From an uncultured Candidatus Rokubacteria bacterium (GTDB lineage: Bacteria > Methylomirabilota > Methylomirabilia > Rokubacteriales > DASRDR01), in contig CAWDVE010000013.1 in NCBI GenBank assembly GCA_963805625.1, forward strand, positions 224,001 to 288,000: a stretch of DNA of 64,000 bases, in the 5' to 3' direction. The notes beneath the pieces are model-generated. The model saw only the letters and a list, made by a program, of their open reading frames with translations. It was not told where the DNA came from and searched no databases. A program made the translations under genes and the position numbers. Below, piece by piece: positions 28,734 through 58,769 of the stretch. The stretch's first letter is position 1; every line of letters begins with the position of its first letter.

Positions 28734-28742
28734 GCCCGTCAC

Positions 28743-29150: not shown

Positions 29151-29782
29151 GCTGGCGGGCGCTCCGGGCGAGTCTCCGCCCCGACGGCCGGGGCTTCACG
29201 CTCGTCGAGGTCATTCTCGCCGTGTCCATCCTTGCGGTCGTCATCCTCCTGGCCACTGCCGCGCTGCGCGTCGGCCTCCGCGCCTGGGAGGCCGGACAGC
29301 GGCGCGCGAACCTCCAGCAGGAGAGCCGCGCGCTCGTCGAGTTGGTCAGCGAGGCACTTGCAGGCGCATCGGCCTACCGCGGGCGCCTGGGCCAGAACCC
29401 CGAGCGTATCGTGCTCTTCGAGGGGGAGCCGGAGGAAGTGCGCTTCGTGACGAGCGCGCCGCCGCTTACGCTGGACAACCCGGTCGCCCCGTTCCATGCG
29501 GTCGTCCTCGGGCGCAAGGGGCAGGACGCGTTGCGGCTCATCGAACGGCTCGTGCCCTCGGACGAGCCATTCGCGCCCGGGCCCGAGCGCGTCCTGTCCC
29601 GGTCCGTCACCCGCTTCAGCCTCGCCTACCGGGACGAGGCCGGGGCGTGGCAGGAGCGGTGGGACGGCCGCGAGGCGGGCGGGCTGCCGACCGCAGTGCG
29701 GCTCGAGCTCTCGGTAGCCGGCCTCGCCCGGGCGACACCCGCGCTCGTCGTCGCGCTGCCGATGGGAAAGCAGGCCCAGTGA
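29147..29782 (+). CDS. gspJ: Minor pseudopilin J
   Basis: RG-FTLVEVI, C-terminal LPTAVRLEL; GTGA overlap. Confidence 0.85.
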   Translation: MSWRALRASLRPDGRGFTLVEVILAVSILAVVILLATAALRVGLRAWEAGQRRANLQQESRALVELVSEALAGASAYRGRLGQNPERIVLFEGEPEEVRFVTSAPPLTLDNPVAPFHAVVLGRKGQDALRLIERLVPSDEPFAPGPERVLSRSVTRFSLAYRDEAGAWQERWDGREAGGLPTAVRLELSVAGLARATPALVVALPMGKQAQ

Positions 29783-32120: not shown

Positions 32121-32121
32121 G

Positions 32122-32736
32122 GTGCCTGCCCTCCGTCCGCGCGAGCGCCGTCTCCTCGTTGCCGCGGGGCTGATCGGGATCGGGGTAGCGGGCTACGTCT
32201 ACATCGTCGAGCCCCTGATCGAGGCGCACGCCGCGACCCGCGAGCTGGTGGTCGCCCGGCGCGGCCTCCTCGCCCGCCAGGAGCGCCTCGTCGCCCGGTC
32301 GGAGGCATATGACCGGGAACTGGGAGCGCTCCGCACTGAAATCGCCCGCCGCCGAGGCCGACTGCTGGCCGGCGACAAGGCGCCCGTGGCGGCGTCGGAG
32401 GTCCAGAAGCTGGTCAAGACGACAGCGCAGGAGGCTGGCATCGAGGTCCGCAGCGAGCGGATCCTCGCCCCGGTGGATCGCGGGGGGTACGCGGAGGTTC
32501 CAGTCGAGGTCACGCTCTCCGGCCCGATCCGCGGCCTGACGACCTTTCTCTACCGTCTCGAAGAGGCGCCCATCCTCCTGGCGCTGACCGACCTCAAGGT
32601 GCGTGCCCCGGCGACGGGCGCGATGCGCGATCTGTCGGCGACGATCGCGCTCAGCGGATTCATCCCGGCGTTGCCGAGCTCGGGCCCGCCGCCCCGTCCG
32701 GCGACCACCGCGCCAGCCGCGCGACCCGGAGGCTGA
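32122..32736 (+). CDS. gspM: GspM/PilO-like protein
   Basis: LRPRERRLL, TM helix, coiled coil and ferredoxin-like C-terminus. Confidence 0.8.
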   Translation: MPALRPRERRLLVAAGLIGIGVAGYVYIVEPLIEAHAATRELVVARRGLLARQERLVARSEAYDRELGALRTEIARRRGRLLAGDKAPVAASEVQKLVKTTAQEAGIEVRSERILAPVDRGGYAEVPVEVTLSGPIRGLTTFLYRLEEAPILLALTDLKVRAPATGAMRDLSATIALSGFIPALPSSGPPPRPATTAPAARPGG

Positions 32737-32739
32737 GCC

Positions 32740-33414
32740 GTGGCGCGGCGCGTCCTCCTGCTCGTCGACGGTCTCCTGCTCGTGGCCGCGGCATTCCTCG
32801 GAGTTCGCCTCTACGAGGCCTGGGGCGCGCGCACGCCCGCCGCACCGCCGGAGGCGCCGCCGGCGGTGTCAACCGAGGCGGCTCCGCCGCCGGCCGCCAC
32901 CTCGCCCCGGACTCCGCTCACGGCCTTCGCCGTCGTCGCCGAGCGCAACCTCTTCAGTCCGACGCGGACCGAGACCGCCCCGGAGCCGCCCCGCCCCGCG
33001 GCCGGGGCCGGAGCGCAGGCCCCCCCGGCGCCGAAGCCGCGGCTCTACGGGGTCGTGCTCCTCGCGGAGGGACGGGGCCGGGCCTACCTGGAAGACGTGC
33101 AGCGGCGACGGGTCTTCGCCTACTCGGTAGGGGACGTCGTCGGGGATGCCCGCCTCGAGCAGATCAAGCCGGATCGGGTAGTGCTGCGCCGAGGTGGCGA
33201 AACCTTCGAGGTGCTGCTTGCCGATCCTTCGAAACCTCGGCAGTCCAGCGTACAATCGCCAGGGGCTGGAGGAGCGGGCCGTCCGGCAGTGGCGGGGCCA
33301 CCGGTGCCCCAGCCGACCACGGGCATCCGTTCCCCCGGCCGGCCGCGGGTCGCCGTGCCGCCTCCTGCGCCGCCCAGTACGGAAACGCAGGAACAGCCGA
33401 CCGAGGAAGAATGA
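32740..33414 (+). CDS. GspC/PilP-like protein
   Basis: N-terminal TM, ERNLFSPTR, LYGVV...GD...IKPDRVVL HR-like domain. Confidence 0.75.
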   Translation: MARRVLLLVDGLLLVAAAFLGVRLYEAWGARTPAAPPEAPPAVSTEAAPPPAATSPRTPLTAFAVVAERNLFSPTRTETAPEPPRPAAGAGAQAPPAPKPRLYGVVLLAEGRGRAYLEDVQRRRVFAYSVGDVVGDARLEQIKPDRVVLRRGGETFEVLLADPSKPRQSSVQSPGAGGAGRPAVAGPPVPQPTTGIRSPGRPRVAVPPPAPPSTETQEQPTEEE

Positions 33415-35759
33415 TAGAGAAGCTGGCGCGCCGCCGGATCGCGGTCCTCGGCCTCGCCGTCCTCGGCGGATGCGCGGGCCCCGGAGCCAGCGGGCCCAAG
33501 CCCCCGCCCAGCTCCCAGGTCGCTGTGACCGTGACCGCGGAACCGGCGCCTGCCGATCGCCCGGTCGCCTTGCCCAGCGTCCCGCCTCGTCCCGAGACGG
33601 AGAGCGGGGCGACCGTTCCCCCGCCCCTCGGTTCGCCCCCAGCCGCTCCGGAACGGGGAACGACGGCCCAGGCGGCGCCCGGCCGACCCATCACGCCACC
33701 GGCCCGGGCCGGGCGCCAGATCGTCCTCAACTTCGACAACGCCGACATCGAGGCCGTCATCCAGGCGGCGAGCGAGATCGCCGGGTTCAACTACACGATC
33801 GGTCCTGGCGTCGCCGGGAAGAAGGTCACGATCCAGACCTCGGGCCGGATCCCCGAAGAAGAAGTCTTCAACGTCCTCCTGGCTGTGCTCGAGGTCAACG
33901 GCGTCACGGCCGTCCGCTCGGGCAATCTCTACAAGATCCTGCCGACCACCGCGGCCCGAGAGCGGCCGGTGCCCACCGTCATCGGTGCCCAGGCGGACCC
34001 TACTCGGCGCGACGACGAGGTGATCACCCAGATCGTGCCCCTCCAGTACCTCCCGGCTGACCGGGTCGCAGCGACGCTACGGTCATTCGTCCAGGGCGGC
34101 AACCTCGTCGTCCAGGGCAACCTCCTGATCGTCACCGACACCGCCGCCAACGTGGCGCGCATCCTTCAGATCGTGCGCGTGCTCGACGTGGAGGTCGCGA
34201 CCGACGATCTCCGGCTGATCCCCGTCCGGTACGCCGACGCGGTCGAGCTGGCGCGGATGCTGAACGAGTTCTTCAGCGGCCGGCGCGTCCGCACCTCGGT
34301 GGCCGCAGTCCCCGTGCCGGCTCCACCGCGCCCCGGGGCGCCGCCCGCAGCGCCGGGCGTGGCCGGAGCCGCTGGAGATTCCGGGGACCGCTCCCCCCTG
34401 ATCCTCGCCGACAAGCGTACCAACGCGCTGCTCGTGTCCGGCCGGCGGTCCGACGTCGAGCTCGCGTCCAAGCTGACCGGCCAGCTCGACGTGGACACCC
34501 AGGCCAACAAGCGCGTGTTCGTCTACTACGTGGAGAACGTCAAGGCGAAGGAGCTGACCGTGACACTGACGGAGATCTTCGGCAAGCCCGGGGAGGGTGT
34601 GGCGCGGCCCCTGCAGCTGGGAACCGGAGCCAGCCAGGGGACCGGGGGCGCGCCCCAGCCACCTTCTCCTCTCGTGACGGTCGTCGCGACAGGGACCGAC
34701 CTCGAGCCAAGCGTCGTCGAAGGCCAGGTCAAGGTCGTCGCCGACGAGCCCAACAACGCGCTCATCGTCACGACATTCCCACGCAACTGGCCCCTCATCG
34801 AGGACACGATCCGGAAGCTCGACCGGATACCGAAGCAGGTCCTCATCGAGGTGCTGGTCGCCGAGGTGGGGCTGAACGACGAGAACCGCCTCGGTCTCGA
34901 GTGGACACTCCGGACCCAGCGCGACGTCACGATCGGCGGTCAGCCCTACAACGTTGGCTCCGTGTCACGCGTCGACGTTGGGCCGCCGTCTTCGCTCCCC
35001 GGCCAGACGCCGACGGCGACCCTGCCTTTCCCGACGGTAGCCGTGCCACCCGTAGCCGGGCTTACCTTCCTCCTGTTCGAGACCGACCGATTCCTCAGCA
35101 TGCTTAACCTCTACGCCAACTACGGTCAGCTGACCGTGCTCTCGAGTCCGACGATCATGACCTCGGAGAACAAGAAAGCCGTCATCAACGTGTCGAACTC
35201 CGTGCCCATCGTCACGCAGCAAGTCGTGTCCCAGACCGGGATCGCGACCACGTCCCCCACGCCCCAGCAGGCCCCGACGAACGTTCTCACCCAGGCCGTC
35301 GAATACCGGGACGCCGGCATCATCCTCACGGTCACGCCCCGCATCAGCGACAGGCGGGTGGTCGCTCTCGATGTGAAGCAGACCGTCAACGACGTCGGCG
35401 ATCCCCGGCCGCCGAGCGGCTCCCCAGATATCATCAAGCGGGAGGCTGAGACGTCCGTGGTCCTGCGGGACAACCAGACGCTGGTATTGGGAGGACTCAT
35501 CCGAAGCCGGCGAGCCAGCACGAAACAGGGTATCCCATGGCTGTCCAAGATCCCGGTCATCGGCTTCCTGTTCGGCGCCACCGTCGATCGAATGGAGCGG
35601 ACCGAGCTCCTGATACTGATTACCCCTCGCGTGATCGGGGACCCCAGCGAGGGCCAGGAGATCCTCAAGCAGGTGCGCGAGCAGCGCCCGGGCTTGGAGA
35701 AGGACCTGCGTCTTCACCCGAACATCCTCCGGCCGGAGGCGGAGCCGGCGACGCCATGA
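33411..35759 (+). CDS. gspD: Type II secretion secretin with lipoprotein signal
   Basis: LNFDNADI, N-domains, QVLIEVLVAEV, GIPWLSKIPVIGFLFG, RTELLILITPRV; lipobox LGGC. Confidence 0.95.
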   Translation: MIEKLARRRIAVLGLAVLGGCAGPGASGPKPPPSSQVAVTVTAEPAPADRPVALPSVPPRPETESGATVPPPLGSPPAAPERGTTAQAAPGRPITPPARAGRQIVLNFDNADIEAVIQAASEIAGFNYTIGPGVAGKKVTIQTSGRIPEEEVFNVLLAVLEVNGVTAVRSGNLYKILPTTAARERPVPTVIGAQADPTRRDDEVITQIVPLQYLPADRVAATLRSFVQGGNLVVQGNLLIVTDTAANVARILQIVRVLDVEVATDDLRLIPVRYADAVELARMLNEFFSGRRVRTSVAAVPVPAPPRPGAPPAAPGVAGAAGDSGDRSPLILADKRTNALLVSGRRSDVELASKLTGQLDVDTQANKRVFVYYVENVKAKELTVTLTEIFGKPGEGVARPLQLGTGASQGTGGAPQPPSPLVTVVATGTDLEPSVVEGQVKVVADEPNNALIVTTFPRNWPLIEDTIRKLDRIPKQVLIEVLVAEVGLNDENRLGLEWTLRTQRDVTIGGQPYNVGSVSRVDVGPPSSLPGQTPTATLPFPTVAVPPVAGLTFLLFETDRFLSMLNLYANYGQLTVLSSPTIMTSENKKAVINVSNSVPIVTQQVVSQTGIATTSPTPQQAPTNVLTQAVEYRDAGIILTVTPRISDRRVVALDVKQTVNDVGDPRPPSGSPDIIKREAETSVVLRDNQTLVLGGLIRSRRASTKQGIPWLSKIPVIGFLFGATVDRMERTELLILITPRVIGDPSEGQEILKQVREQRPGLEKDLRLHPNILRPEAEPATP

Positions 35760-36400
35760 ACGAGGCCCTGGTCGCACGGGCTGCCCGCCGCCGCTGGTCG
35801 GCCCGCGTCCGTCACAGCGTCACGGCCCTGGTCATCGCGACCCTCCTGGGAGCCTGCGAGGGGGGCTCCGGCCAGAGCGGGAGCGCGTTCGTCTTCCTGA
35901 CCGTCGACAGCTTCTCGCTCAGCGTGGGTGGAACGCCCATCTCGAGCGTCCCCTCCTCCACCGCCACGGGGACGACGACGATGGCCTGCGTCACCCTCCG
36001 CAATAATCTCAAGAACCCGACGGTCACCGCGGGCACCGCCCTGGATAACGTGACCGTCCGGTCGTACACGGTGACGATCACGCCGCTGACGGGTGGAAGT
36101 CTCGGGGGTCCGTTCACTTTCGGGACCGCCGTGCTCGTTCCCGCGGGCACAGTTGCCACGGGCGTTGTCAGCAACAACACGGCAACGTTCGCCGTCGTGC
36201 TGGTTCCGTCGGGGTCGAAGGGCAGCCCCGGGACGGCAGCCACGGTGGAGATCACGTTCCGCGGACGCGACGGACGCGGGCAGGCCGTCGAGGCCGACGG
36301 CGCCGTCACGGTCCTGTTCACGAGCGGGCTCGAAACGGACTCGACCTGCTCGGGCACGACGGGCGGCACCGGAGGAACCGGCGGCACCACCACGTCCTGA
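35756..36400 (+). CDS. Thr/Gly/Ser-rich beta-rich lipoprotein coupled to gspD
   Basis: ATGA overlap with the gspD stop; lipobox LLGA-C; C-terminal TGGTGGTGGTTTS. Confidence 0.75.
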   Translation: MNEALVARAARRRWSARVRHSVTALVIATLLGACEGGSGQSGSAFVFLTVDSFSLSVGGTPISSVPSSTATGTTTMACVTLRNNLKNPTVTAGTALDNVTVRSYTVTITPLTGGSLGGPFTFGTAVLVPAGTVATGVVSNNTATFAVVLVPSGSKGSPGTAATVEITFRGRDGRGQAVEADGAVTVLFTSGLETDSTCSGTTGGTGGTGGTTTS

Positions 36401-44740: not shown

Positions 44741-44956
44741 TCAGCCCAGTGTCGCGACGACCTCCCCCTCCTGGACCGTCTGGCCCTCGCTCACTCGAAG
44801 CTCCTCCACGACGCCTGCGCGCGGTGCCTCGACGGGTATCTCCATCTTCATCGATTCCAGGATCAGGATCGGGTCGCCGGCCGCGACCGTGCTGCCCGCG
44901 CCGGCGACGATCTGAAACACCACGCCCGTGATGTGGGCGCACACGTCCTCTGCCAT
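44741..44956 (-). CDS. Biotin/lipoyl carrier protein (BCCP)
   Basis: 71 aa with the biotinylation motif ILESMKME. Confidence 0.92.
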
Positions 44957-44960
44957 CGTC

Positions 44961-46295
44961 CTAAAGCCCTCCCTCGAGAAACCGCGTGTGCACCGCGCCC
45001 GCCCGGAACGCCGGATTGGACAGGATCCGCCGATGGAGGGGAAGGGTGGTCTTGACCCCTTCGACCCGGTAACGCTCGAGGGCATCCGTCATCCGGTCCA
45101 GCGCGTCGTCCCGATCCCGGCCTGCCCCGATGATCTTCGCGAGCAGCGGATCGTAGTGGACCGTGACCACGCTCCCCGGCTCCACTCCGCATTCGTGGCG
45201 AAGCCCGGGCCCTTCGGGGAGCTCGAGCGCCGTGACGGTTCCCGGGGATGGCAGGAAGCCTCGGTCCGGGTCCTCGGCATAGATCCGACACTCGACGGCC
45301 GCACCCCGCACCTGGATGTCCTCCTGAGCCCAGCCTAGGCGATCCCCCGCGGCGATCCGGAACTGGGCCTCGACGAGATCCCGCCCGACGACCTCCTCCG
45401 TCACGGGATGCTCCACCTGGAGCCGGGTGTTCATCTCGAGAAAGTAGAAGTGGTCCCCCTCGACCAGAAACTCGACGGTCCCGGCGTTCCGGTACCCGGC
45501 CGCGGCCGCCACGCGCACGCCCGCCACGTGAACCCGCGCCCGGAGGCCGGCGTCGAGCCGGGGCGCAGGCGACTCCTCGATGAGCTTCTGGTGCCGCCGC
45601 TGGATCGAGCAGTCACGCTCGAAGAGGTGGATCAGTGCGCCGTGCTCGTCACCGAGCACCTGGACCTCGACGTGCCGGGGCCGCTCGACGGCCCGCTCGA
45701 CGTAGACTGCCGCGTCCCCGAAGGCGGACCCGGCGCGCCGCTCTGCGGCGGCGAACGCCGCGTCGAGCCGTTCCGGGCCGGGAACGAGCGCCATACCGAT
45801 CCCGCCTCCGCCGGCGGCGGCCTTCAGCATGACCGGATAGCCGATCGCATCGGCGATCTCGCGGGCCGCCCCCGCGCTCGCGACAGGACCGTCCGATCCG
45901 GGCAGTACCGCAACGCCCGCCCGGGCGACGAGGCGACGCGCCTCCGTCTTCTGGCCCATCATCCTGAGCACGTCGGGAGGCGGACCCACGAAGGTGAGGC
46001 CGACTTTCAGGCAGGCCTCGGCGAACCGCCAGTTCTCCGACAGGAATCCGTACCCCGGATGGACGGCGTCCGCCCCAGCGTCCCGAGCCGCCCCCACCAC
46101 GCGCTCGATCGAGAGGTAGCTCTCGCGTGCGGGCGCCGGGCCGATCGGGAACGCCTGGTCGGCCGCCCGGACGTGGGGCGCACGGGCGTCCGCCTCCGAG
46201 TACACCGCGACCGGACGGATCCCGAGCTTTCGGCAGGCCCGGATGATCCGGAGCGCGATCTCGCCACGATTGGCCACCAGCACGGTGCCGAACAG
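44961..46295 (-). CDS. Biotin carboxylase subunit (probable CTG start)
   Basis: [45 protein letters not shown]. Confidence 0.93.
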
Positions 46296-46297
46296 GA

Positions 46298-46666
46298 TCA
46301 GACCTCCCCGGGCCGGGACGCGGGCCTTGGCGCGCCGGCGGGCTCGCCCTCCACCCGGGTGACCTCCGCCTCGCGGATGCGCCAACGCCCGCCGGCCCCG
46401 GCGGCCCATCGGGCCTGCACTACCAGGGTCGTCGGCCCCACAAACTTGGTCTTGAAGATGTGGTGGGCTCCGATCCGGGCGTGAGCAACCAGCTCGAACC
46501 CCTTGAACGGGTGCCCCAGCAGCCACTCGACGAGATGCGGCGGCGTGACATCAGCTCCGGGGGCGAGGTCCTCGCGTGCCTGCAGGTCACGGCGGACGAC
46601 ATGCTCGGCGTGGCTCCGGGCCGCCTGCTCCGGCCCGGTTCCCTCGCCCAGCCGGCTCTCGCTCAC
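46298..46666 (-). CDS. Hypothetical protein (possibly NTF2/SnoaL-like)
   Basis: Coupled to both neighbours; alpha-then-beta pattern ending WRIREAEV. Confidence 0.65.
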   Translation of the reverse strand: MSESRLGEGTGPEQAARSHAEHVVRRDLQAREDLAPGADVTPPHLVEWLLGHPFKGFELVAHARIGAHHIFKTKFVGPTTLVVQARWAAGAGGRWRIREAEVTRVEGEPAGAPRPASRPGEV

Positions 46667-47268
46667 GCCAGGCTCCCAGTCACCCCGCCGGAGGCGTCCA
46701 GCTTGTCGCGCAGCTCGCGCTCCCAGGCCGCGATCCGCGCGCGCGCGCCTGGTGTCTGTGCGAGCGCATCCAGCACGGCCTCTCCGTCACTCATATGGCG
46801 ACGCTCGTCGGCGAGGCACCGCTCCAGGATCCGTCGCGTGGGAGGCTCGTACACGGGGTTGACCCGGTCGAGGTGGGCGGCGTAGACGGCGACCAGGTGC
46901 GGCTTCAGGACCCGATACACCCCGGTCAGCCGCTCGATCGTCTCCGCCCAAGCCTCGGGTCCCTCGAGCGCGTCCAGGAAGCGCACGAACTCAGGACCCG
47001 GCGGCTCGGACACCTGCGCCGGAGCTCGCAGCTCGGGCAGCCGTTTCCCCCACTGGTCCGCGTGCTGGGCACAGTCCCACACCTGGCGGCCGAACAGCAG
47101 CTTCGCGGGAACCTCTGGCGTGAGGGCGATCCAGCCGGCCATCACGCGCATCATCCGCTCTTCGGCGTAGCGGTAGCGGCGGACGCGGCGGGCAGTGGCT
47201 TCGACGCCCAGGTGGCCGGCCAGCTCCCGGCCGGGCTGGTCCGCGGGCGAGGGCGTGACCCCGGTCAC
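46663..47268 (-). CDS. Ferritin-like protein with degenerate diiron ligands
   Basis: YAEE...WDCAQH...LADERRH four-helix pattern. Confidence 0.7.
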   Translation of the reverse strand: MTGVTPSPADQPGRELAGHLGVEATARRVRRYRYAEERMMRVMAGWIALTPEVPAKLLFGRQVWDCAQHADQWGKRLPELRAPAQVSEPPGPEFVRFLDALEGPEAWAETIERLTGVYRVLKPHLVAVYAAHLDRVNPVYEPPTRRILERCLADERRHMSDGEAVLDALAQTPGARARIAAWERELRDKLDASGGVTGSLA

Positions 47269-47271
47269 GGG

Positions 47272-48027
47272 CTAGTAGACGGGACTGCGTTGCGTGCTCT
47301 TGACGAGCCGATCGATCTCCTCGTCGGTGAAGCCGGCGAGCCTCCGGTACTCGGTCGCGATCGCGATCGGCACCTGGTCGGCCGGTCCCTCCCGGCGCAT
47401 GCCGCCGAGGTTGAACCGGTCGTCGATTGACTCCTGGAACTCGACAGCCCGCCGACGGCGCTCCGGATCGCCCTCGGTCAGCTTGTTCAGCCAGTAGGAG
47501 CCCATCCGCACGTGGGTGATCTCGTCGGCCAGCACGTAGTCCACCGACTGGGCGATCGTCGGATCCGGCAGGCGGCGGGCGATCTCGACCAGCTGGACGA
47601 ACACGTCACAGGCGAGCCCCTCGAGCCCCCGGTTGACGCCCGCCACGCGCGCCGCGGCGTCCTCCGCGCAGGCGCACCGCCAGAGAATCGTCGTCTCGGG
47701 GAACTCGCCGATGTAGCCGCCCAGGTGCTCCAGCAAGCGGCTGAACACCTCGACGTGGCGCGACTCGTCCCAGGTCTGGCGCGCCATGTCCATCGTGAAC
47801 TCCCACGGCGCATCGGGAAAGTCGTAGACCGTGCGGCCCGCGCCCTCCATCGCCTGGAGCTCGCCGACGAGGATCCCGTGGATGCGCTCCCGGATCGACT
47901 CCACCGACGACAGATCCGGCATGCGTGGCAGACCCTGCTCGGCCCGGATCTCCCCGACCCTGCGCGCGCGCATCCGGACGAATCGGTCCTCCCGCGCCAG
48001 CTTGTCGTAGGCGATCGGCCGCTCCAT
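47272..48027 (-). CDS. Ferritin-like diiron protein (DUF455-like)
   Basis: GELQA...WDESRH...LEG...ADEITH diiron-carboxylate ligand set. Confidence 0.82.
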   Translation of the reverse strand: MERPIAYDKLAREDRFVRMRARRVGEIRAEQGLPRMPDLSSVESIRERIHGILVGELQAMEGAGRTVYDFPDAPWEFTMDMARQTWDESRHVEVFSRLLEHLGGYIGEFPETTILWRCACAEDAAARVAGVNRGLEGLACDVFVQLVEIARRLPDPTIAQSVDYVLADEITHVRMGSYWLNKLTEGDPERRRRAVEFQESIDDRFNLGGMRREGPADQVPIAIATEYRRLAGFTDEEIDRLVKSTQRSPVY

Positions 48028-48092
48028 GCCGGGGATTCTACCCCACGGGCCCGGTGGCGCCTAGGTCGGCCAGGACAGGACGTCCTCGCCCG

Positions 48093-49413: not shown

Positions 49414-50083
<670 letters not shown>

Positions 50084-50091
<8 letters not shown>

Positions 50092-50470
50092 GCTTCGCCT
50101 CCCGGAGCCCGCCCGTCCGGTAGTGCCGGAGGGCGCTCCTGAGCGCGTCCACGACCATGGTAGCCGCGTGACGCCGATCCTCCGGCAGCCCCCCGAGCGC
50201 CGATTCGACGGCCTCGGGTGTCAGCTCGCCCAGCGCCTCGATGGGCCGATCGCGCACCAGCTCGGTCGCGATGCTCGAGGCCGCGATCGACGGACCGCAG
50301 CCGTAGGTCTGGAACCGCGCTTCCCGGATCCGGTCACCCTCGATGCGAAGGTAGAAGCGCGCCAGGTCTCCGCAGCTCGGATCCTCGCTCTCTCCCACCG
50401 CATCCGGGCTCCGCATCATCCCGACGTTCCGGGGCGCGCGGAAGTGGTCCAGGAGCGTCTCGCTGTACAT
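50084..50470 (-). CDS. IscU/NifU-N-like scaffold protein (second copy, third Cys absent)
   Basis: [13 protein letters not shown] and YGCG are present, but the usual HC reads RHA. Confidence 0.85.
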
Positions 50471-50506
50471 CGTACCGTGGACGGCCGGCTACACCGTCTC
50501 TCTCCG

Positions 50507-51661
50507 TCAGGCCGCCCCGGCGGGCGACATGGCCCGGATCCGCTGAACAAGAGCCGGCAGGACGTCGAGGACGTAGTCGATCTCCTCGGCCGTCGTGCCC
50601 GCCCCAAGCGAGGTCCTGACGGCGCCGAGCGCCCAGTCGACGGGGATGCCCATGGCGGTGATCACGTACGAGGGCTCGAGGCTCCCGGAGGTGCACGCCG
50701 AGCCCGCGGAGACCCCGATGCCCTTGAGGTCGAGCCCCAGGATGAGCGACTCCGCCTCGAGGCCGCGGAAGCTCATGTTCAGTGTGCCAGGTAGGCGACG
50801 CGTAGGATGACCGTTGAGCCGCACGTCCGGCACGGCTTGCCGCACCCCGTCCCACAGCCGATCGCGCAGGTCGGTCACGCGGAGAGCCTCCTCGGCCATG
50901 TAGCGCGCCCGGAGCTCGACCGCCTTGCCAAACCCCACGATGCCGGGCACGTGCTCGGTCCCGGCCCGCCGCCGCCGCTCGTGGTCGCCGCCGTGCTGGA
51001 CGGACACCATGCGGGTGCCCTTGCCGATGTAGAGCGCGCCGATGCCCTTCGGCCCGTAGATCTTGTGCGCCGACATCGACATGAGGGTGATCCCGGATTC
51101 CCGTGGAAACAGGGGCAGCTTCCCAAACGTCTGGACCCCGTCGGAGTGGAGCGGGATGCTTCGCTCCGCCGCGATTCGCCCGATCGCCTCGATCGGCATC
51201 AGCGTTCCAGTCTCGCTGTTCGCCGTCTGGATCGAGATCAGGATCGTGTCCGGACGGAGCGCGCGCCGCACGTCGTCCGGATCCACCAGACCCTCGCCGT
51301 CGACGGGCAGGTACGTCACGGCGTGGCCGACCTGCTCCAGCGCCTGACAGGTACGCAAGAGGGCATGATGCTCGACCACGGTCGTGACGATGTGGCCCCC
51401 CGGACGGGCGCCCGCAACACCCTTGACCGCCAGGTTGTCTGATTCGGTGCCGCCGGACGTGAACACGATCTCCTCCGGCGTGACCCCGAGGAAGCCTGCG
51501 ATGCTCTCGCGCGCGGCGTCGATGCCGTCACGAGCCTCCCGCCCGAAGCTGTGGATGCTCGAGGCATTGCCGAAGCGCTGCGAGAAGTAGGGCAGCATCG
51601 CCGTCAGGACGTCGGGGTGGACGGGGGTCGAGGCGTTGTGATCGAGATAGACGCGTCGCAT
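50507..51661 (-). CDS. Cysteine desulfurase (NifS/IscS-like, second copy)
   Basis: YLDHNAST, FTSGGTESDN, SAHKIYGPKG, SAGSACTS. Confidence 0.95.
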   Translation of the reverse strand: MRRVYLDHNASTPVHPDVLTAMLPYFSQRFGNASSIHSFGREARDGIDAARESIAGFLGVTPEEIVFTSGGTESDNLAVKGVAGARPGGHIVTTVVEHHALLRTCQALEQVGHAVTYLPVDGEGLVDPDDVRRALRPDTILISIQTANSETGTLMPIEAIGRIAAERSIPLHSDGVQTFGKLPLFPRESGITLMSMSAHKIYGPKGIGALYIGKGTRMVSVQHGGDHERRRRAGTEHVPGIVGFGKAVELRARYMAEEALRVTDLRDRLWDGVRQAVPDVRLNGHPTRRLPGTLNMSFRGLEAESLILGLDLKGIGVSAGSACTSGSLEPSYVITAMGIPVDWALGAVRTSLGAGTTAEEIDYVLDVLPALVQRIRAMSPAGAA

Positions 51662-51727
51662 GACGTTCCTCACCTCGTGACGCGGCTGGCCCGCTGCCGC
51701 GCAAGCGCCCGCGGAGGGCTCGGCGCG

Positions 51728-51756
51728 TTGACAGCGTACCGACCGGATGCTAGCGT
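51728..51756 (+). promoter_or_regulatory. Sigma-70 promoter for the DsrE/F/H-like trio (near-leaderless)
   Basis: TTGACA-N17-TAGCGT with extended -10 TG. The ATG lies 9 nt downstream with no RBS. Confidence 0.65.
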
Positions 51757-51765
51757 TAGCGCGCA

Positions 51766-52104
51766 ATGAGCGGCGAGGTCGCGAGCCAGGATCTGCGCGG
51801 CCGCAAGCTCGGGATGCTCCTCTCCACCGACCCGCGGCACCCCAACCTCGAGACCGGTCTCGGCCTCGCCCGGGCGGCGCTGGATCGCGGCGTGGATCTC
51901 TACCTCTACATGGTCGACGACGGTGTCCGCAACATCGACGACGAGCGCGTGCTCGAGCTCGGCCGCCGTGGCGCGAAGCTCTTCGTATGCGCCTACGGCT
52001 GCCAGCGACGGCGCCTGCCCATCACGGACAAGGCGACGTACTGCGGTCTCGTCGTCCTCACCGATCTCATCAATGGCACCGAGCGCTTCGTCGCGCTCAA
52101 CTGA
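51766..52104 (+). CDS. DsrE/TusD-family sulfur relay protein
   Basis: LYMVDDGV, FVCAYGC, GLVVLTDLI. Confidence 0.8.
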   Translation: MSGEVASQDLRGRKLGMLLSTDPRHPNLETGLGLARAALDRGVDLYLYMVDDGVRNIDDERVLELGRRGAKLFVCAYGCQRRRLPITDKATYCGLVVLTDLINGTERFVALN

Positions 52105-52134
52105 CCCGGCCCGCAAGACCGTCGACGTCACGTG

Positions 52135-52494
52135 ATGCCCGAAACCGAGATCCCCGTTCTCGTCGCCGTGTCGGTGGACCCGGAGACGTCGCACCGCGCG
52201 AACGAGGCCGTGCGTATCGCGCTCGGTATCCTCGCGGGGGAGAACGCCGTCACGATCGTCCTCCTGGGCGCAGGCGCCAAGGTGCTCGACGCGGACGTCG
52301 AGGACTACGTGGACGGGGAGGATCTCATGAGGCACCTGGGCACGCTCAAGAAGCTCGGCCAAGCGTTTCACGTCGAGCGAAGCGCCATGCGGTCCAACGG
52401 GGGCTGGAATCCGCTCGGCCTCGAGCTGCTGCCGATCGACCGGGCGGAGCTCGCGGGCCTTCTCGCGGGAAGCCGCCGGGCGCTTCTCTTCTAG
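52135..52494 (+). CDS. DsrF/TusC-like protein
   Basis: EAVRIALG, VTIVLLGAG and the C-terminal ELAGLLA..RALLF pattern; middle gene of the trio. Confidence 0.65.
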   Translation: MPETEIPVLVAVSVDPETSHRANEAVRIALGILAGENAVTIVLLGAGAKVLDADVEDYVDGEDLMRHLGTLKKLGQAFHVERSAMRSNGGWNPLGLELLPIDRAELAGLLAGSRRALLF

Positions 52495-52500
52495 ACCGCC

Positions 52501-52764
52501 GTGCCGCACGTCCTGCACCTGGTCAAGGACCCCGGGAACTCGACGGCGCTCGAGGTGATCGGCACCCAGGCAGCGGACCCGAGCGTCCGGCTCTCGGTCG
52601 TGCTGATGCACGACGCCGTCCGCCTCACCGAGCCGCTGCCCGGCCGGATCTACCGCCTGCGCGACGGGCATCCCGACCTCCCTCCGCAATCCGGCTCGGA
52701 TGCGATCGGTCCCAGCGAGCTTCTCGACCTGATCTTCACGGCCGATTCCATCGTGACCTGGTAG
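52501..52764 (+). CDS. DsrH/TusB-like protein
   Basis: VLHLVK...VLMHDAV...LDLIFTADSIVTW. Confidence 0.7.
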   Translation: MPHVLHLVKDPGNSTALEVIGTQAADPSVRLSVVLMHDAVRLTEPLPGRIYRLRDGHPDLPPQSGSDAIGPSELLDLIFTADSIVTW

Positions 52765-52776
52765 CGCTCCCGTCCC

Positions 52777-52986
52777 TCACGGATTCGCGCGGAACTCCTC
52801 GAGCCACGCCATCTGGATCGCCTCGAGCTTGCCTTCGGTCGACGCCTTCGGGTCGTCGGCGAACCCGGGCAGCTCGGTGACCCACCGATGGAGGTCGGTG
52901 AACCTCACCGTGAGGGGATCGGTGTCCGGATAGCGCTCCACGAGTGCGAGCGCGATGTCCTCGGTGTCCTGCCAGCCGATGCTCAT
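52777..52986 (-). CDS. iscX: Fe-S assembly protein IscX
   Basis: WQDTEDIA, DPLTVRFTDL, LEAIQMAW. Confidence 0.93.
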   Translation of the reverse strand: MSIGWQDTEDIALALVERYPDTDPLTVRFTDLHRWVTELPGFADDPKASTEGKLEAIQMAWLEEFRANP

Positions 52987-52999
52987 GGTCCCCGGCCCG

Positions 53000-53323
53000 T
53001 CACTCCACGATGTCGACGACCACGTCACCCTGCACGATCGCCTGGCAACCGAGCCTCGAGTGGAGGGTCAGACCCGTAGCCGTGTCGAGGCGATCCTCCT
53101 CGTCCGGCTCCATGGGCGAGAGGTTCTCCTCGCCCTGGCGGACGACGACGTGGCAGGTGGTGCAGGCGCAGTTGCCCCCGCAGTTGTGGTCCATCCGGAC
53201 CCCGTGGTGGAGTGCAATGTCGAGGAGCGATCCGGGCTTCCCGTGATCGCCATACGGGAAGTCCTTGTCGTCGACCTCCACGGTAACGTCGGCTGGCTTG
53301 AAGGTGACCCGGTACCGGGCCAT
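53000..53323 (-). CDS. fdx: ISC-system 2Fe-2S ferredoxin
   Basis: HNCGGNCACTTCHV...SRLGCQ. Confidence 0.93.
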   Translation of the reverse strand: MARYRVTFKPADVTVEVDDKDFPYGDHGKPGSLLDIALHHGVRMDHNCGGNCACTTCHVVVRQGEENLSPMEPDEEDRLDTATGLTLHSRLGCQAIVQGDVVVDIVE

Positions 53324-53325
53324 CG

Positions 53326-55221
53326 TCAGCGCGCCTCCCCCGCCGGCACGTCGGCGATCCGTCGCTCCTTGAGCGTGTCCCGGAGCACAGAATCCATCAG
53401 CCTCTCGGCCAGTTGCTGGGTTTCCCGATTCACGCGTTCCGTCGCCTCGCGGATCGCGCCAGCATCCTCTTCGTGACGCGCGCCCGCGAGCGCCGCCACG
53501 GCTTCGCGGATCCGCGCGGCCTCCTCGGCCCCGAGGAAATCCGCCCCCTGGACCAGCGCCTTCTCGGTCGCGCGCAGCACCGTGTCGGCCTCGTTCCGGG
53601 CGTCGATCAGTCCGCGGGCGCGGACGTCGGCCTCCGCGTGCTCGAGCGACTCGTCGATCATCCGCTCGACTTCGGCGTCGCTCAGCCCGTAGGTCGGGCG
53701 GACCTCGACGGAGGCCTGGGTGCCGCTGCGGACCTCCTTCGCCGTCACGCTCAGGATGCCGTTCGCATCGATCAGGAAGGTCACCTCGATGCGCGGCAAG
53801 CCCGCCGCCATGGGCGGGATCCCCCTGAGGTCGAATCGCGCGAGGCTCCGGTTGTCCGTCGCCAGGTCCCGCTCCCCCTGGACCACGTGCATGTCCACGA
53901 CGGACTGGCCGTCGACCGAGGTGGTGAACCCCTCGTGGGCGGACGTCGGGATTGTGGTGTTCCGGGGGATCAGCACGCTCACGGCGCCGCCCAGCGTCTC
54001 GATCCCGAGCGAGAGCGGCGTGACGTCGAGGAGGAGCATGTGGGTCGTCCCGCCGGCGAGGATGTCAGCCTGAACGGCTGCTCCGAGGGCCACCACCTCG
54101 TCGGGGTTCAGCTCGGAGTGGGGCACCCGCCCGAACAGCTCCTGCACCCGCCGCCGCACGAGGGGCGTCCGCGTCGCCCCGCCCACGAGGACGACCTCGT
54201 CGATTCCCTCGAGAGCCAGGCCCGAGTCGGCGATGGCGACCCGGCAGGGACCTAGGGTCCGCGCCACGATGGGGCCGATGACCGACTCCAGCTCGGCCCG
54301 AGTCAGCTCCCGCCGGTAGGTGAGGCCGTGCTGCGGCAGCGGCAGGGTGAAGACCGTCCGCTCCTCGCTGGACAGGAGGATGCGGGCCGCCTCGATGCCC
54401 AGGCGGATCTCCTGGAGCGTGTCCGCCTCGCCGGCGACGTCGACGCGGTGGCGGGCCCGGAGCTCGTCCACCACCAGATCGACCAGGGCGCGGTCGAAGT
54501 CGTCCCCGCCCAGGTGGGTGTCACCGTTGGTCGCGAGCACCTCGAAGATGCCGTCCTTGACCTTCAGGATCGAGACGTCGAACGTCCCGCCCCCGAGGTC
54601 GTAGACCGCGATCACGCCTTCCTTCCGCCGTTGGAGCCCGTACGCGAGGCACGCCGCTGTCGGCTCGTTGACGATCCTGAGCACGTCCAGGCCGGCAATA
54701 CGGCCCGCGTCCTTCGTCGCCTGTCGCTGGGCGTCGTTGAAGTAGGCCGGGACCGTGATGACTGCCTTCTCCACCGGGCGGCCGAGATGCCGCTCCGCGC
54801 GCGTCCGGAGGTCGCGGAGGATGAGGGCCGAGACCTCGGGCGGAGTGAGCTCGCGGTCACCGATCCGGATACGGACGATTTCCTGGCTCGGCGTGATGTG
54901 GAAGGGGAAGTAACGTAGCTCCTCACGGACGTCCTCGAAGCCCTTCCCCATGAAGCGCTTGATGGAGTACACCGCACGCTCAGCGTGGCGCACGAGCATC
55001 CGCCGCGCCGCATCGCCGACAACGGGACCCGCGGGCCCGAACGCGACGACCGAGGGTACGAGCCCACGGCCATCCGCGTCGCGAATCACCTGGGGCACGC
55101 CCCGGTCCATGTAGGCGACCAGGCTGTTCGTGGTCCCGAGGTCGATCCCGACCACCAGCTCCTTGACGCCTGGTGGGTCGGGCCGGGCTCCCGGGGCCAC
55201 GCCGATCGTCAGGTCCGTCAT
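53326..55221 (-). CDS. hscA: Fe-S assembly chaperone HscA
   Basis: [25 protein letters not shown]; isc operon context. Confidence 0.92.
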
Positions 55222-55973
55222 CGGTCCGTCTGTCCTCCATCCATTTGGACGGTGAGCGTGACCCCCAGGTCGCGGAGGACCGTCCGCAGATACGCGCGGG
55301 TCGCGAGAATGTCACGCATCCGGCCGAGCACCCGACGGCGCGTCGCGGCGTCGCCTGCATCCCATTCCGGGAAACATGCGGTCAGCTCCGTCTCCGCGCC
55401 GACGCGCCGAGCCGCGAGCTCCGCCTGCGCCCCTTCCAGGCGGGCGCGGAGCGCGGGCGCCTCGTCGGCGTCAGCCGTCTGGAGCTCCATCCGCGCCTCC
55501 TGCACTTCCAGGATCTCCTCGAAGAGATCGGCCGGCGGCTTCGCCTGCCCCGCCGTGCCGAGCGCCATGCCCTCGAGCTCCAGGAGGTAGTCCACGCGAG
55601 TCACCGGATCCCGGAGCGCGCGGTACGCGGCGTTCACGGCCGCGGAGGCCTCGAGACTGATGGCCTGCTCCTCCGGAGACCGCAGGCGGAAGTAGTCCGG
55701 ATGGAGGCGCCGATTCAACCCGTGGAAGCGCTGCTCGAGGTCGGCCCGATCGAGGGCGAGCCGGCGTTCGAGCCCGAGCACGGTCCAGTGGTCGCTCCCC
55801 GCCGGAAATGGCTGGAGCCGGCCGCACTCGGAACAGACCTGCCCGTCGGCCGCGACCGCGCCGCAGCTCCAGCATTTCGATCCGTTCCGCTCGTCCGCTC
55901 CTACCACCACACTCGCCCCCAAACACCGACCGGGCCTCGGAGGAGGCCCGGTCAGATCGCTGTCCCGCTCCAC
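55218..55973 (-). CDS. hscB: Co-chaperone HscB with N-terminal tetracysteine motif (start uncertain)
   Basis: CWSC...CSEC, J-domain [13 protein letters not shown]. Confidence 0.9.
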
Positions 55974-56022
55974 CTCGAGTCAGGTCGGGATGCCGCTCGC
56001 CCCGCCCCCCGTCGTCAGAGAC

Positions 56023-56349
56023 TCAGGCCGTGAACGACGTGCCGCAGCCGCAGCTCGACTTCGCGTTGGGGTTGACGAAGGTGAAGCCACCGGTCAGACC
56101 CTGGGTGACGTAGTCCAGCGTCGTCCCGTTCAGGTAGAGGTAGCTCTTGACATCCACGACGACCTTCACCCCATCGACCTCGAACTCCTTGTCGTGCTTC
56201 CTGAGCTCGCTGTCGAACTGAAGATCGTAGGTCATGCCCGAGCACCCGCCCCCGCGCACACCCATACGGAGGAACGCGTGGTCGAGGCTCTGGGCCTTCA
56301 TGAGCTCCTTGACCCGGTTGACCGCCACCGGCGTCATCGAGACCGCCAT
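56023..56349 (-). CDS. iscA: A-type Fe-S carrier
   Basis: GGCSG...CGCGTSF. Confidence 0.95.
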   Translation of the reverse strand: MAVSMTPVAVNRVKELMKAQSLDHAFLRMGVRGGGCSGMTYDLQFDSELRKHDKEFEVDGVKVVVDVKSYLYLNGTTLDYVTQGLTGGFTFVNPNAKSSCGCGTSFTA

Positions 56350-56374
56350 GGTCGTCCGTCCTCCCCTCGCTCCG

Positions 56375-56791
56375 CTATTCCTGGCCCTGGGCCGTCACCG
56401 CCTGCCGCTCGGCCCACTTCTCCTGGAAGTCGCGGATCGCCGCCTTGATCGCGTCCTCGGCCAGGACCGAGCAATGGATCTTGACGGGCGGCAGCTTCAG
56501 CTCGTTCACGATGTCCGTGTTCTTGATCTTCAGGGCATCGTCGACGCTCTTGCCCTTGAGCCATTCGGTGGCAAGGCTCGAGCTGGCGATGGCGGAGCCG
56601 CAGCCGAAGGTCTTGAACTTGGCGTCCTCGATGACGCCGGTGTCCAGGTTGACCTTGATCTGGAGCTTCATCACGTCGCCGCACTCGGGGGCGCCGACGA
56701 GCCCCGTCCCCAGCCCCGGAGTGTCCTTGCCGAAGGACCCGACATTCCGGGGGTTGCTGTAGTGGTCGATCACCTTGTCGCTATAGGGCAT
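56375..56791 (-). CDS. iscU: Fe-S scaffold IscU
   Basis: PRNVG, CGD, FGCGSA, LPPVKIHCS. Confidence 0.97.
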   Translation of the reverse strand: MPYSDKVIDHYSNPRNVGSFGKDTPGLGTGLVGAPECGDVMKLQIKVNLDTGVIEDAKFKTFGCGSAIASSSLATEWLKGKSVDDALKIKNTDIVNELKLPPVKIHCSVLAEDAIKAAIRDFQEKWAERQAVTAQGQE

Positions 56792-56805
56792 GGGCGCCGT
56801 CTCCT

Positions 56806-58035
56806 TTACTCAGCCTTCCACTGGATGGACTTGATGTCCACGCCTTCCTTCGCCAGTTCGTAGAGCGGCGACATCTCGCGGAGCCGCTTCACGACGTCGA
56901 TCGTCCGATCGGCCACGACATCAACCTCCTCGCCGGTGGTGAACCGATGCAGCCCGTACCGGATCGAGGAGTGCGCGAGATCGGCTCCCACGCCGAGCGC
57001 CTGGATGACGTACGACGGCTCCAGGGTGGACGACGTGCAGGCTGACCCAGACGACAGCGCGACTTCCTTGTTGAGTCCCATGAGGATCGATTCACCCTCG
57101 ACGTAGGCGAACGAGATGTTGAGGGTGTGGGGCAGCCGGCGCTCCGGGTGGCCGTTCAGGTACGACTCGTCCACGGACGAGAGGATGCGATCCTGCAGCC
57201 GGTCCCTGAGCTGGGCCAGCCGCGCCCCCTCCTCGGACATGACCTCGCGGCAGATCTCGGCCGCGAGGCCAAAGCCCACCGCTAGCGCCACCGGCACCGT
57301 CCCGGAGCGGGCGCCGCGCTCGTGGCCGCCACCGTCGATCATGGGGGCGAGACGGACGCGCGGGTTGCGCCGGCGCACGTACAGGGCGCCAATGCCCTTG
57401 GGCCCGTAGAGCTTGTGCGCGGTGCAGGACAAGAGGTCGATGCCCATCTTCTCGACGTCGACCGGAATCTTGCCCACGGCTTCGGTCGCGTCCGTGTGGA
57501 AGAGGACACCCCGCTCCTTCGCGACCCGGCTCAGCTCCTGGACCGCCTGGATGGTCCCGATCTCGTTGTTAGCGAGCATGATCGAGACGAGGATGGTCCG
57601 GTCGGTGATGGCCTTGCGGAGCGCGTCGGGATCGACCACGCCCATCGCATCGACCGGCAGGTAGGTCACCCGGGCGAGTCCCTGCTTCTCCAGTCGCCGG
57701 CAGGGATCGAGGACCGCGCGCTGCTCCGTCACCGTCGTGACGATGTGGTCGCCCTTCTCCCGGTACATCTCCACGACGCCCTTGATGGCCAGGTTGTCGG
57801 CCTCGGTTCCCCCGGATGTCCAGACCAGCTCCTTGGGGTCGCGCGCGCCGATCAGCCGGGCCAGCTGCTCGCGAGCCCGCTCCATGCCTCCTTCCGCCTC
57901 CCAGCCGAAGGAGTGGTTGCGGCTGCCGGGATGCCCGAACTTCTCGGTGAAGTACGGGATCATCGCCTCGAGCACCCGGGGGTCAACGGGCGTCGTCGAG
58001 TTGCTGTCCATGAAGATCGGGAACTTCACCGCCAT
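56806..58035 (-). CDS. iscS: Cysteine desulfurase IscS
   Basis: TAHKLYGPKG, SSGSACTS, LREMSPLY...SIQW. Confidence 0.96.
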   Translation of the reverse strand: MAVKFPIFMDSNSTTPVDPRVLEAMIPYFTEKFGHPGSRNHSFGWEAEGGMERAREQLARLIGARDPKELVWTSGGTEADNLAIKGVVEMYREKGDHIVTTVTEQRAVLDPCRRLEKQGLARVTYLPVDAMGVVDPDALRKAITDRTILVSIMLANNEIGTIQAVQELSRVAKERGVLFHTDATEAVGKIPVDVEKMGIDLLSCTAHKLYGPKGIGALYVRRRNPRVRLAPMIDGGGHERGARSGTVPVALAVGFGLAAEICREVMSEEGARLAQLRDRLQDRILSSVDESYLNGHPERRLPHTLNISFAYVEGESILMGLNKEVALSSGSACTSSTLEPSYVIQALGVGADLAHSSIRYGLHRFTTGEEVDVVADRTIDVVKRLREMSPLYELAKEGVDIKSIQWKAE

Positions 58036-58058
58036 GCGCCGTCTCCTCAGTGCTGCGT

Positions 58059-58505
58059 TCAGTGCCGCGTTGCGACGAGCCCCGCTGCGACGGTCGGCGG
58101 CTCGTTCAGGGTATTCATCGTCTCTAGGGTCATGGTCTCCAGGAATCGCTCGATACCGCTCTGGATCGCCAGCACCGGACGCCGGATGTTGCAACGCTCG
58201 AGCTGCGGACACTTCATCGTCCGGTAGCAGTTCACCAGACCGAGGGGACCCTCGATCGCCTGGAGCACCTCGCTCACCCGAATCTGGCTCGGGTCCCGGG
58301 CGAGGACGTAGCCCCCCTTGGGCCCGTTGACGCTCGCGATCAGCTTCCCCTTGGCGAGGCGCTGAAGGATCTTCGCGAGGAGCTCCGATGGGATCCCGAG
58401 GTCTTCCGCGATCCGCTTGGTATTGACCACGCCGCCGTGCTGGTGGAACGCGATATAGTGAACCGCCATCAGCCCGTAGTCAGCCTTCCTGCTGAACCTT
58501 AACAC
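58059..58505 (-). CDS. iscR: Rrf2-family regulator (IscR-like, three Cys)
   Basis: KADYGL, GPKGGYVLAR, C-x5-C-x5-C; first gene of the isc operon. Confidence 0.82.
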   Translation of the reverse strand: MLRFSRKADYGLMAVHYIAFHQHGGVVNTKRIAEDLGIPSELLAKILQRLAKGKLIASVNGPKGGYVLARDPSQIRVSEVLQAIEGPLGLVNCYRTMKCPQLERCNIRRPVLAIQSGIERFLETMTLETMNTLNEPPTVAAGLVATRH

Positions 58506-58520
58506 CGACCCTCCTGATCG

Positions 58521-58571
58521 CCGACCTAATTGGTCGGAGTTAAAGATGACATGCGGCCAGGATCCTGTCAA
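58521..58571 (-). promoter_or_regulatory. isc promoter with a palindromic IscR-type operator
   Basis: TTGACA (58571-58566)-N17-CATCTT. The palindrome CCGACC-N5-GGTCGG at 58521-58537 resembles the IscR type-1 site. Confidence 0.7.
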
Positions 58572-58769
58572 GGCGTCAACAGCCTGGAATCGCTGCCGAT
58601 TTGGCGACGGGGGACGGCTCCTGGCGGGGAACGGCAATCAACGTAGGATAGTGTCAATCAGCGGACGGAGGACGCCCGCACAGACGGCGACCCATCGCCG
58701 CCGGTGCCCATCGCCGAAGGCCCCGGGTGATGCCCCGCGGCAAGGACCCGGGCGAACGGGAGCCGCCGG

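Follow-up and report, generated by a model that had tools for sequence, protein, structure and literature searches.

A predicted alpha/beta ferritin-like diiron oxygenase encoded beside biotin carboxylase genes in Rokubacteriales

The window (that is, the whole stretch of DNA analysed here, 64,000 nt in length) comes from an uncultured Candidatus Rokubacteria bacterium (GCA_963805625.1, contig CAWDVE010000013.1, positions 224,001-288,000 of the forward strand). On its minus strand, at 44741-48027, five open reading frames (ORFs) were confirmed, in the following order: (i) A; (ii) B; (iii) C; (iv) a biotin carboxylase (BC); and (v) a biotin carrier. The first three likely encode an alpha/beta ferritin-like diiron oxygenase composed of A and B(C), which is predicted to be a heterodimer. 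Judging by the operator sequences found in related genomes, the pair appears to belong to a TetR regulon of fatty-acid degradation in most Rokubacteriales and in some Acidimicrobiia, while the carboxylase genes of the operon are probably a lineage-specific companion that lies outside the diiron enzyme.

The ferritin-like pair

Gene A (47272-48027, on the minus strand like the rest of the operon) encodes a ferritin-like protein of 251 aa, the predicted catalytic diiron subunit. This protein is a member of the Pfam family DUF455 (PF04305, COG2833; E 1.7e-28, 100.3 bits versus a cut-off of 34.3), here paired with a partner family, that of B, which carries no annotation. The first-pass annotation of this DNA had read in A a full E/ExxH/E/ExxH ligand set, and such a set is indeed present: the diiron ligands are E56, E88-x-x-H91, E136 and E169-x-x-H172, and all six are invariant in the 55 aligned homologues (55/55), which come from two phyla and include three paralogues. 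In its structure model (pLDDT 86), A shows the pattern of the ferritin-like diiron oxidases/oxygenases, i.e., a predicted four-helix bundle with E, ExxH, E and ExxH. Its best Foldseek matches are an aldehyde-deformylating oxygenase and PaaC, together with R2lox (none of them below E 1e-3), the first being the nearest fold (Z 17.7, rmsd 2.8, 188 residues aligned). Sequence searches of the PDB with A and B returned weak R2lox and Dps matches only. Weak paralogues of A in related genomes (30% identity over 150 aa) are separate proteins found in unrelated contexts.

Gene B (46663-47268; 201 aa) encodes a paralogue of A, likewise ferritin-like, whose site is degenerate and which is predicted to act as the non-catalytic partner. 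Although it has no Pfam match at E ≤ 0.01 and does not pass the PF04305 cut-off, B and A are homologues (probability 97.4 and E 1.3e-11 in hhalign). The residues at the six ligand positions of A are E36, C66, H69, K122, E155 and H158 in B; in other words, two carboxylates are missing (E88 is replaced by C66, and E136 by K122) and four of the six ligands are left. The degeneracy that had been ascribed to the first site of B is therefore real but larger than was described, since two carboxylates and not one have been lost. Across 59 B homologues, these six positions vary freely. The model of B (pLDDT 92.5) is a predicted ferritin-like bundle, whose top match is the B chain of toluene 4-monooxygenase in Foldseek (E 8.7e-4, TM 0.74) and an aldehyde-deformylating-oxidase-like chain in VIA (Z 18.4, rmsd 2.5, 174 residues aligned). 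PaaC is among the matches of both models. The matches of A and B point to a superfamily and not to a reaction.

A and B are adjacent or fused across phyla. A profile search with B recovered 1261 representatives at E ≤ 0.001, and 40 homologues, chosen for their length among the 150 matches listed of those 1261, were scanned for fusions: 20 of these 40 longer homologues end in a DUF455 domain (16 of the 20 scoring above the cut-off), and all six ligands are present in 17 of the 19 DUF455 halves of such B-A fusions. Because natural B-A fusions occur, A and B may be taken to act as one enzyme. Thus, the proposal that the two form a catalytic plus non-catalytic pair in the manner of PaaA/PaaC gains support from the ligand pattern, the folds and the fusions. 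Named B homologues come from Methylomirabilota/Rokubacteria. B homologues are labelled "phenylacetyl-CoA epoxidase catalytic subunit" by JGI, which is not borne out; neither A nor B matches PF05138. Where B homologues were joined to pieces of BC (three cases: P0154, P0156 and P0195), a frameshift artefact was taken as the probable cause.

Gene C (46298-46666; 122 aa) encodes a small alpha+beta domain. It had been annotated as a small alpha/beta protein; the ORF exists, but it is not an independent family member. In 25/40 relatives, B runs in frame into a C-homologous domain, and C is thus the split-off C-terminal domain of B. The split seen in the window occurs in 12/40 loci, all of them from the family of this genome, and the remaining 3/40 are frameshifted. 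In the alignment of C (A6), a G/W/W set and basic residues are invariant and no Asp or Glu is conserved, which disfavours a limonene-epoxide hydrolase as the identity of C. No Pfam match and no PDB profile match were obtained for C; its Atlas look-alikes are unnamed, and the nearest family among its Atlas neighbours, DUF4864 (0.90), can serve as no more than a lead. The fold of C may be NTF2-like.

Comparison with known diiron enzymes

The alpha/beta layout, with a catalytic and a non-catalytic ferritin-like subunit, is that of PaaA/PaaC, an alpha/beta epoxidase acting on acyl-CoA, and of the multicomponent monooxygenases. In PaaA/PaaC (3PVR, 4IIT) and the toluene monooxygenases (3DHG, 1T0Q), catalytic and degenerate ferritin-like paralogues lie side by side, as would be the case for A and B. 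Nevertheless, there are clear differences with PaaA/PaaC: (i) A and B have no PF05138 match (one of the 59 B homologues matches weakly) and identities are 12-16%; (ii) natural B-A fusions exist; and (iii) the pair would be under a FadR-type regulon. The only PF05138 match over the cut-off in this genome is on another contig. Neither PaaB, PaaD, PaaE nor a reductase was found among the recurrent neighbours of the operon or in a crude motif scan (the ORFs were not each scanned for families). To judge by sequence, then, the pair would work like PaaA/PaaC and yet falls outside its Pfam family.

Two further enzymes share the ligand order of A. The cyanobacterial aldehyde-deformylating oxygenase (cADO), its nearest fold, acts on a fatty-acyl substrate. 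BioE of Elizabethkingia, compared by its description, belongs among the ferritin-like diiron enzymes and shares the E/ExxH/E/ExxH order (PMC12704756, in the portion available); it is described as cleaving long acyl thioesters of CoA or ACP (acyl carrier protein) in chain to give a pimeloyl thioester (PMC12704756 and PMC12915131, likewise in part). Unlike the predicted A-B pair, both BioE and cADO are presented there as homodimers (PMC12704756).

Synteny and distribution

The first-pass annotation had described five tightly packed genes, and they are packed as it said: A and B are separated by 3 nt, B and C overlap by 4 nt (GTGA), C and BC are 2 nt apart, and BC and the carrier 4 nt apart. Of 61 genomes searched, 49 have an A orthologue at ≥75% identity; the loci of 40 of the 48 others were fetched and eight, mostly near contig ends, were left out. 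The order of the genes is the same in 40/40 of these loci, whose A identities range from 76 to 100%; this goes beyond what chance would give. A, B and the carrier are present in all 40 loci, BC in 35/40 (in two loci it is partial and in three it is missing), a DinB-family gene in 27/40, and a carboxyltransferase (CT) gene after the operon in 17/40 (two partial). In the genus of this genome (9/9 loci), both the DinB-family gene and the operon CT are missing. In two loci of one genus (L047 and L049), genes for an acyl-CoA ligase, an SDR protein, (an enoyl-CoA hydratase) and an acyl-CoA dehydrogenase are inserted between BC and the carrier. At E ≤ 1e-8, B was found in 14/14 and 106/108 genomes of the two main Rokubacteriales families, some matches being weak; in other families of the phylum it was found weakly or not found.

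Outside the phylum, 80 loci were kept of 568 from Acidimicrobiia. The A proteins of this class are the sister group of those of Rokubacteria (support 100/99, in a midpoint-rooted tree of a 35-row subset). Their gene order is B, A, a gene for a 183-aa protein and a hydrolase gene, with A in 74/80 loci and the 183-aa protein in 72/80. The best PDB match of the hydrolase is the epoxide hydrolase EphA (E 1.2e-87), and its gene occurs in 60/80 loci and in 52 of the 58 with at least 3 kb downstream. BC, carrier and CT genes occur in none of the 80 loci, 44 of which reach 5 kb downstream, and in none of 20 loci from further Actinomycetota, drawn from 24 positives in 401 genomes. This survey shows a linkage of the carboxylase genes to the pair in Rokubacteriales only. 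Hence, the link with biotin-dependent carboxylation that had been proposed from the window holds across Rokubacteriales, where A, B and the carrier stay together in 40/40 loci, but its mechanistic part is weakened by the two zero counts and by the repeated loss of BC and CT. The proposal had itself counted ferritin-like homologues unlinked to carboxylase genes as evidence against it, and the sister clade provides them.

Several other arrangements were observed in Actinomycetota. The 183-aa protein (L161:8511-9065) belongs to no Pfam family and was not found in this genome; it is a candidate third subunit. An ABC1/UbiB-type atypical kinase gene (L141:5471-6919) lies upstream of B in 48/80 Acidimicrobiia loci. 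In several Acidimicrobiia (loci L253, L254, L258, L259, L262 and L264), a shortened B without A occupies the same place before a sigma factor gene, in some cases with an epoxide hydrolase gene. B-DUF455 fusions of other Actinomycetota (L255, L260, L261, L263 and L265) sit among genes for a nucleoside hydrolase, a ribokinase, a nucleoside phosphorylase and an ABC transporter (all named by reading), a context that would suggest a different substrate class.

Regulation

For what follows, f1 is the family of this genome (15 loci, including the window) and f2 a second family (26 loci). A TGAA-N6-TTCA operator lies just after the -10 box before A in 22/26 f2 loci and in 0/15 f1 loci. The same operator precedes an operon of TetR and enoyl-CoA hydratase genes in 5/5 genomes (reverse control, 0); in three genomes it is also found at acyl-CoA dehydrogenase pairs and at an AAA ATPase gene, and it occurs at a thiolase gene as well, while 2/10 sites are at unrelated genes. 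The best PDB match of the f2 TetR protein is B. subtilis FadR (3WHB, E 1.2e-41), of which it is an orthologue (YsiA/FadR). This repressor is present in 35/37 f2 genomes and 0/21 f1 genomes, a distribution that matches that of the operator. The FadR box of B. subtilis, as given in part of PMC5397183, has the same TGAA core.

In this genome there is neither a FadR orthologue nor an operator at the promoter of the operon. A TAGAAT -10-like hexamer lies 6-8 nt before the start of A in 14/15 f1 loci; in the window it is found at 48035-48040 (minus strand), 7 nt before the ATG of A, and it is likely a leaderless promoter, since its closeness to the ATG suggests a leaderless transcript. A sigma-70 scan reported no promoter at its threshold.

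In Acidimicrobiia, a different palindrome, TGACC-N4-GGTCA, precedes B in 11/80 loci versus 0.06% of shuffles. One genome (G178) has 13 such sites (control, 1), including those at (i) acyl-CoA synthetase/thiolase genes; (ii) two acyl-CoA dehydrogenase genes; (iii) SCP2 and TetR genes; and (iv) an AAA ATPase gene. The latter encodes a MoxR/CoxD-like protein and carries the operator in one genome of each phylum (L280:566-1564 and L221:620-1573, 55% identical); the protein has a homologue (73%) in this genome at C16:420214 and is a possible maturation factor. Each repressor would bind the operator of its own phylum. The acyl-CoA-type substrate put forward in the first-pass annotation is in keeping with this fatty-acid-degradation regulon in two phyla.

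The biotin-dependent carboxylase

BC (44961-46295; 444 aa) is a stand-alone protein with three BC Pfam domains and intact catalytic motifs. Its gene has no ATG, GTG or TTG start; a CTG located 7 nt after a GGAGG (window 46293-46307) is the probable start codon. CTG is found in the window and in 8/9 loci of the same genus; most relatives have GTG, TTG or ATG at this codon. A CTG start will be overlooked or put in the wrong place by annotation tools. The carrier (44741-44956; 71 aa), also stand-alone and with an ESMKM motif, passes NCBIfam NF004547 (84.4 bits, cut-off 75), and its best stand-alone match is the B. subtilis biotin/lipoyl attachment protein (BLAP; 1Z6H, E 1.7e-11). Both genes, which had been annotated as biotin carboxylase and biotin carboxyl carrier protein, are accordingly intact, as indicated by the BC motifs and the MKM lysine of the carrier.

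The CT that had been noted some 23 kb away is at 20426-21958 (minus strand); it is a CT beta subunit (Pfam PF01039) and is not linked to the operon. The operon CT of relatives is 43-49% identical to the CT of the window, i.e., a different paralogue, and an orthologue of the latter at 76-98% is located elsewhere in the genome of most relatives; the CT of the window is not the ancestral CT of the operon. Of BCs, biotin-type carriers and CT systems, this genome has three each. Because two of these carboxylase sets are explained by their neighbours, BC and the carrier of the operon are likely served in trans, by elimination, by the CT at 20426-21958.

BC and the carrier likely belong, as co-regulated components, to a separate acyl-CoA carboxylase of the Yng type. 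The Yng carboxylase of B. subtilis likewise has a stand-alone BC (YngHA), a minimal carrier (YngHB/BLAP, 73 aa) and a separate CT, YngE, which the CT of the window presumably resembles. Unlike in B. subtilis, the CT is here unlinked and other genes of the leucine pathway lie outside the operon; an HMG-CoA-lyase-like gene is found on another contig of this genome. In the part of PMC4016012 consulted, the neighbours of yngHB are suggested to form a methylcrotonyl-CoA carboxylase.

Genomic neighbourhood

The operon is flanked by dinB (DNA polymerase IV, named by reading the sequence) and by a convergent sigma factor gene. An isc-type Fe-S cluster region at 49414-58637 encodes two cysteine desulfurases, two IscU-like proteins, HscA/B, a ferredoxin, an IscR-like protein and CysE; in about half of the relatives, a region of this type lies upstream of the operon on the same strand. 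The ferredoxin of this region might serve as electron donor. Between the operon region and the CT there is a cluster for a type II secretion system (24825-36400). Eight RNA runs hold 5-11% of the sequence words, and in four of them contigs of relatives cover most of the operon; single contigs from RNA runs span A/B, B/C/BC and BC/carrier, but contigs cannot show transcription and are not used as evidence.

This genome contains a second B/DUF455 system, on contig C12 at 73503-81475 (locus L071), with a DUF455 protein, an HPr-kinase-like protein, a B homologue (33%), two further DUF455 proteins with full ligands, a 2OG-Fe(II) oxygenase, an asparagine-synthetase-like protein and a PhyH dioxygenase. 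It looks like a biosynthetic cluster.

Proposed function and alternative explanations

The reading preferred here, to which we give an even chance, places two irons and the activation of O2 on A, with B(C) as the non-catalytic partner and, as substrate, a fatty acyl-CoA encountered in the course of degradation. In such a scheme, the pair would draw on O2 for the oxidation of a fatty acyl-CoA that is beyond the reach of ordinary beta-oxidation: iron binding and O2 activation would take place on A, which would be in contact with B, and a reductase whose gene lies elsewhere would supply the electrons. For the chemistry, epoxidation of a C=C bond is put first, given that PaaA/PaaC, which sets the alpha/beta precedent, is itself an epoxidase and that an epoxide hydrolase gene accompanies the pair in the sister clade; it is the most likely single reaction, though taken by itself less likely than not. 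Removal of the epoxide would fall to the EphA-type hydrolase in Acidimicrobiia and, in Rokubacteriales, perhaps to the DinB-family protein. There are thiol transferases in the DinB family; the member found in these loci has no sequence match in the PDB. Finally, BC, the carrier and the CT at 20426-21958 would act together to carboxylate the short branched acyl-CoA that degradation sets free.

A number of observations weigh against this proposal. The function of A-B is a prediction from sequence and models, and all the fold matches are generic (identities of 12-21%, Foldseek E values of A above 1e-3, and Z values among which those of Dps and bacterioferritin are numerous). A crude motif scan of the 40 loci showed neither a reductase nor a ferredoxin in the operon. 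With regard to the chemistry, epoxide hydrolase occurs in 0/40 Rokubacteria loci, and the DinB-family gene is absent from the genus of this genome. What is argued from the regulon comes from related genomes, as the family of this genome lacks both repressor and operator; the exact palindrome is absent from 69/80 Acidimicrobiia loci, and about 5 of the 13 sites in G178 are inside genes or at genes other than evident fatty-acid genes. Distant B-A modules adjoin nucleoside-catabolism genes or a cluster of kinase, AsnB and 2OG genes, from which it follows that the family would take other substrates too. Besides, the loci counted come from related genomes and are not independent, so the counts overstate the support. 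And the carrier is kept in 40/40 loci, which a mere passenger would not need.

This last point also speaks for a direct coupling, in which the oxidised acyl-CoA would be carboxylated by the BC, carrier and CT of the operon, or the carrier would itself be a partner or substrate of A-B. The carrier is retained even in the five loci where BC is missing or a remnant, the junctions are tight, and a dedicated CT follows the operon in 17/40 loci. Nevertheless, the sister clade has no carboxylase gene (0/80 and 0/20 loci), BC and CT have been lost repeatedly, and the carrier can be explained as the third biotin carrier of the genome, serving an unlinked CT; we regard direct coupling as unlikely. Only a little less so is the possibility that A-B is a soluble acyl-CoA desaturase or an in-chain cleaver, for instance of the diol into which an epoxide hydrolase turns epoxy fatty acids. 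The six-ligand pattern is the same as that of BioE, an in-chain cleaver (PMC12704756, as far as its available portion goes), the nearest fold is an aldehyde-deformylating oxygenase, and induction by acyl-CoA would fit equally well; however, the homodimeric state described for BioE and cADO (same source) contrasts with the A-B layout, which is as in PaaA/PaaC and the multicomponent monooxygenases.

An altogether different role, that of a hetero-oligomeric ferroxidase or peroxidase (bacterioferritin- or Dps-like) that would protect the cell during fatty-acid oxidation, seems quite improbable. The only significant matches in the PDB profile search of alignment A5 were bacterioferritins (E 4e-4) and an aldehyde decarbonylase (E 6e-3), and Dps-like chains rank second to third by Z. 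Yet A and B reach 60-90 residues past the four-helix core, their alignments with oxygenases span 175-200 residues versus about 140 for Dps/Bfr, and the enzymes linked to the pair are catabolic. As for the supply of biotin precursors, which had also been proposed from the window, the idea would be that a BioE-like reaction feeds pimeloyl-CoA to the adjacent biotin enzyme, and the likeness in ligand order and in acyl-CoA substrate to the ferritin-like BioE (PMC12704756, in part) speaks for it. In this genome (99.9% complete), on the other hand, BioB is below the cut-off and the BioD family has no match (BioF and BioA were not searched for), and no bio genes are among the recurrent neighbours in the 40 loci. 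BioE is a homodimer whose gene, according to the same partial source, sits with bioF/D/B/A under BioL. The proposal was therefore rejected, and we hold it to be very improbable.

Significance

DUF455 is widespread and has no assigned function in the literature searched, and B belongs to no Pfam family. No description of a function for DUF455/COG2833 was found in that search, which covered mainly titles (PMC9988556 and PMC4520260 included; subscription papers and supplements lay outside it). A search by title and start of abstract (Rokubacteria plus carboxylase plus fatty acid) returned no description of this operon, and a keyword search of the literature since 2018 returned nothing on a ferritin-like diiron heterodimer with a non-catalytic subunit acting on acyl-CoA. 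The link to an epoxide hydrolase and the carboxylase inventory are added by the present analysis, and the coupling to the carboxylase is probably a matter of co-regulation only.

In its broadest form, which we consider rather unlikely, the hypothesis states that DUF455 and the B family make up a class of alpha/beta diiron oxygenases that is widespread and has gone undescribed, and whose Rokubacteriales/Acidimicrobiia clade would be a fatty acyl-CoA epoxidase, i.e., a new O2-dependent route past the double bonds or branches that block beta-oxidation. The epoxide would pass to a hydrolase in Acidimicrobiia or to a DinB-type thiol enzyme in Rokubacteriales, the co-regulated AAA ATPase would act as maturation factor, and the biotin module would clear branched products. 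Nearly all genomes of the two main Rokubacteriales families have the pair, which is also common in Acidimicrobiia; if the hypothesis is true, these bacteria would possess a new class of diiron oxygenase and, with it, a new step in aerobic fatty-acid catabolism.

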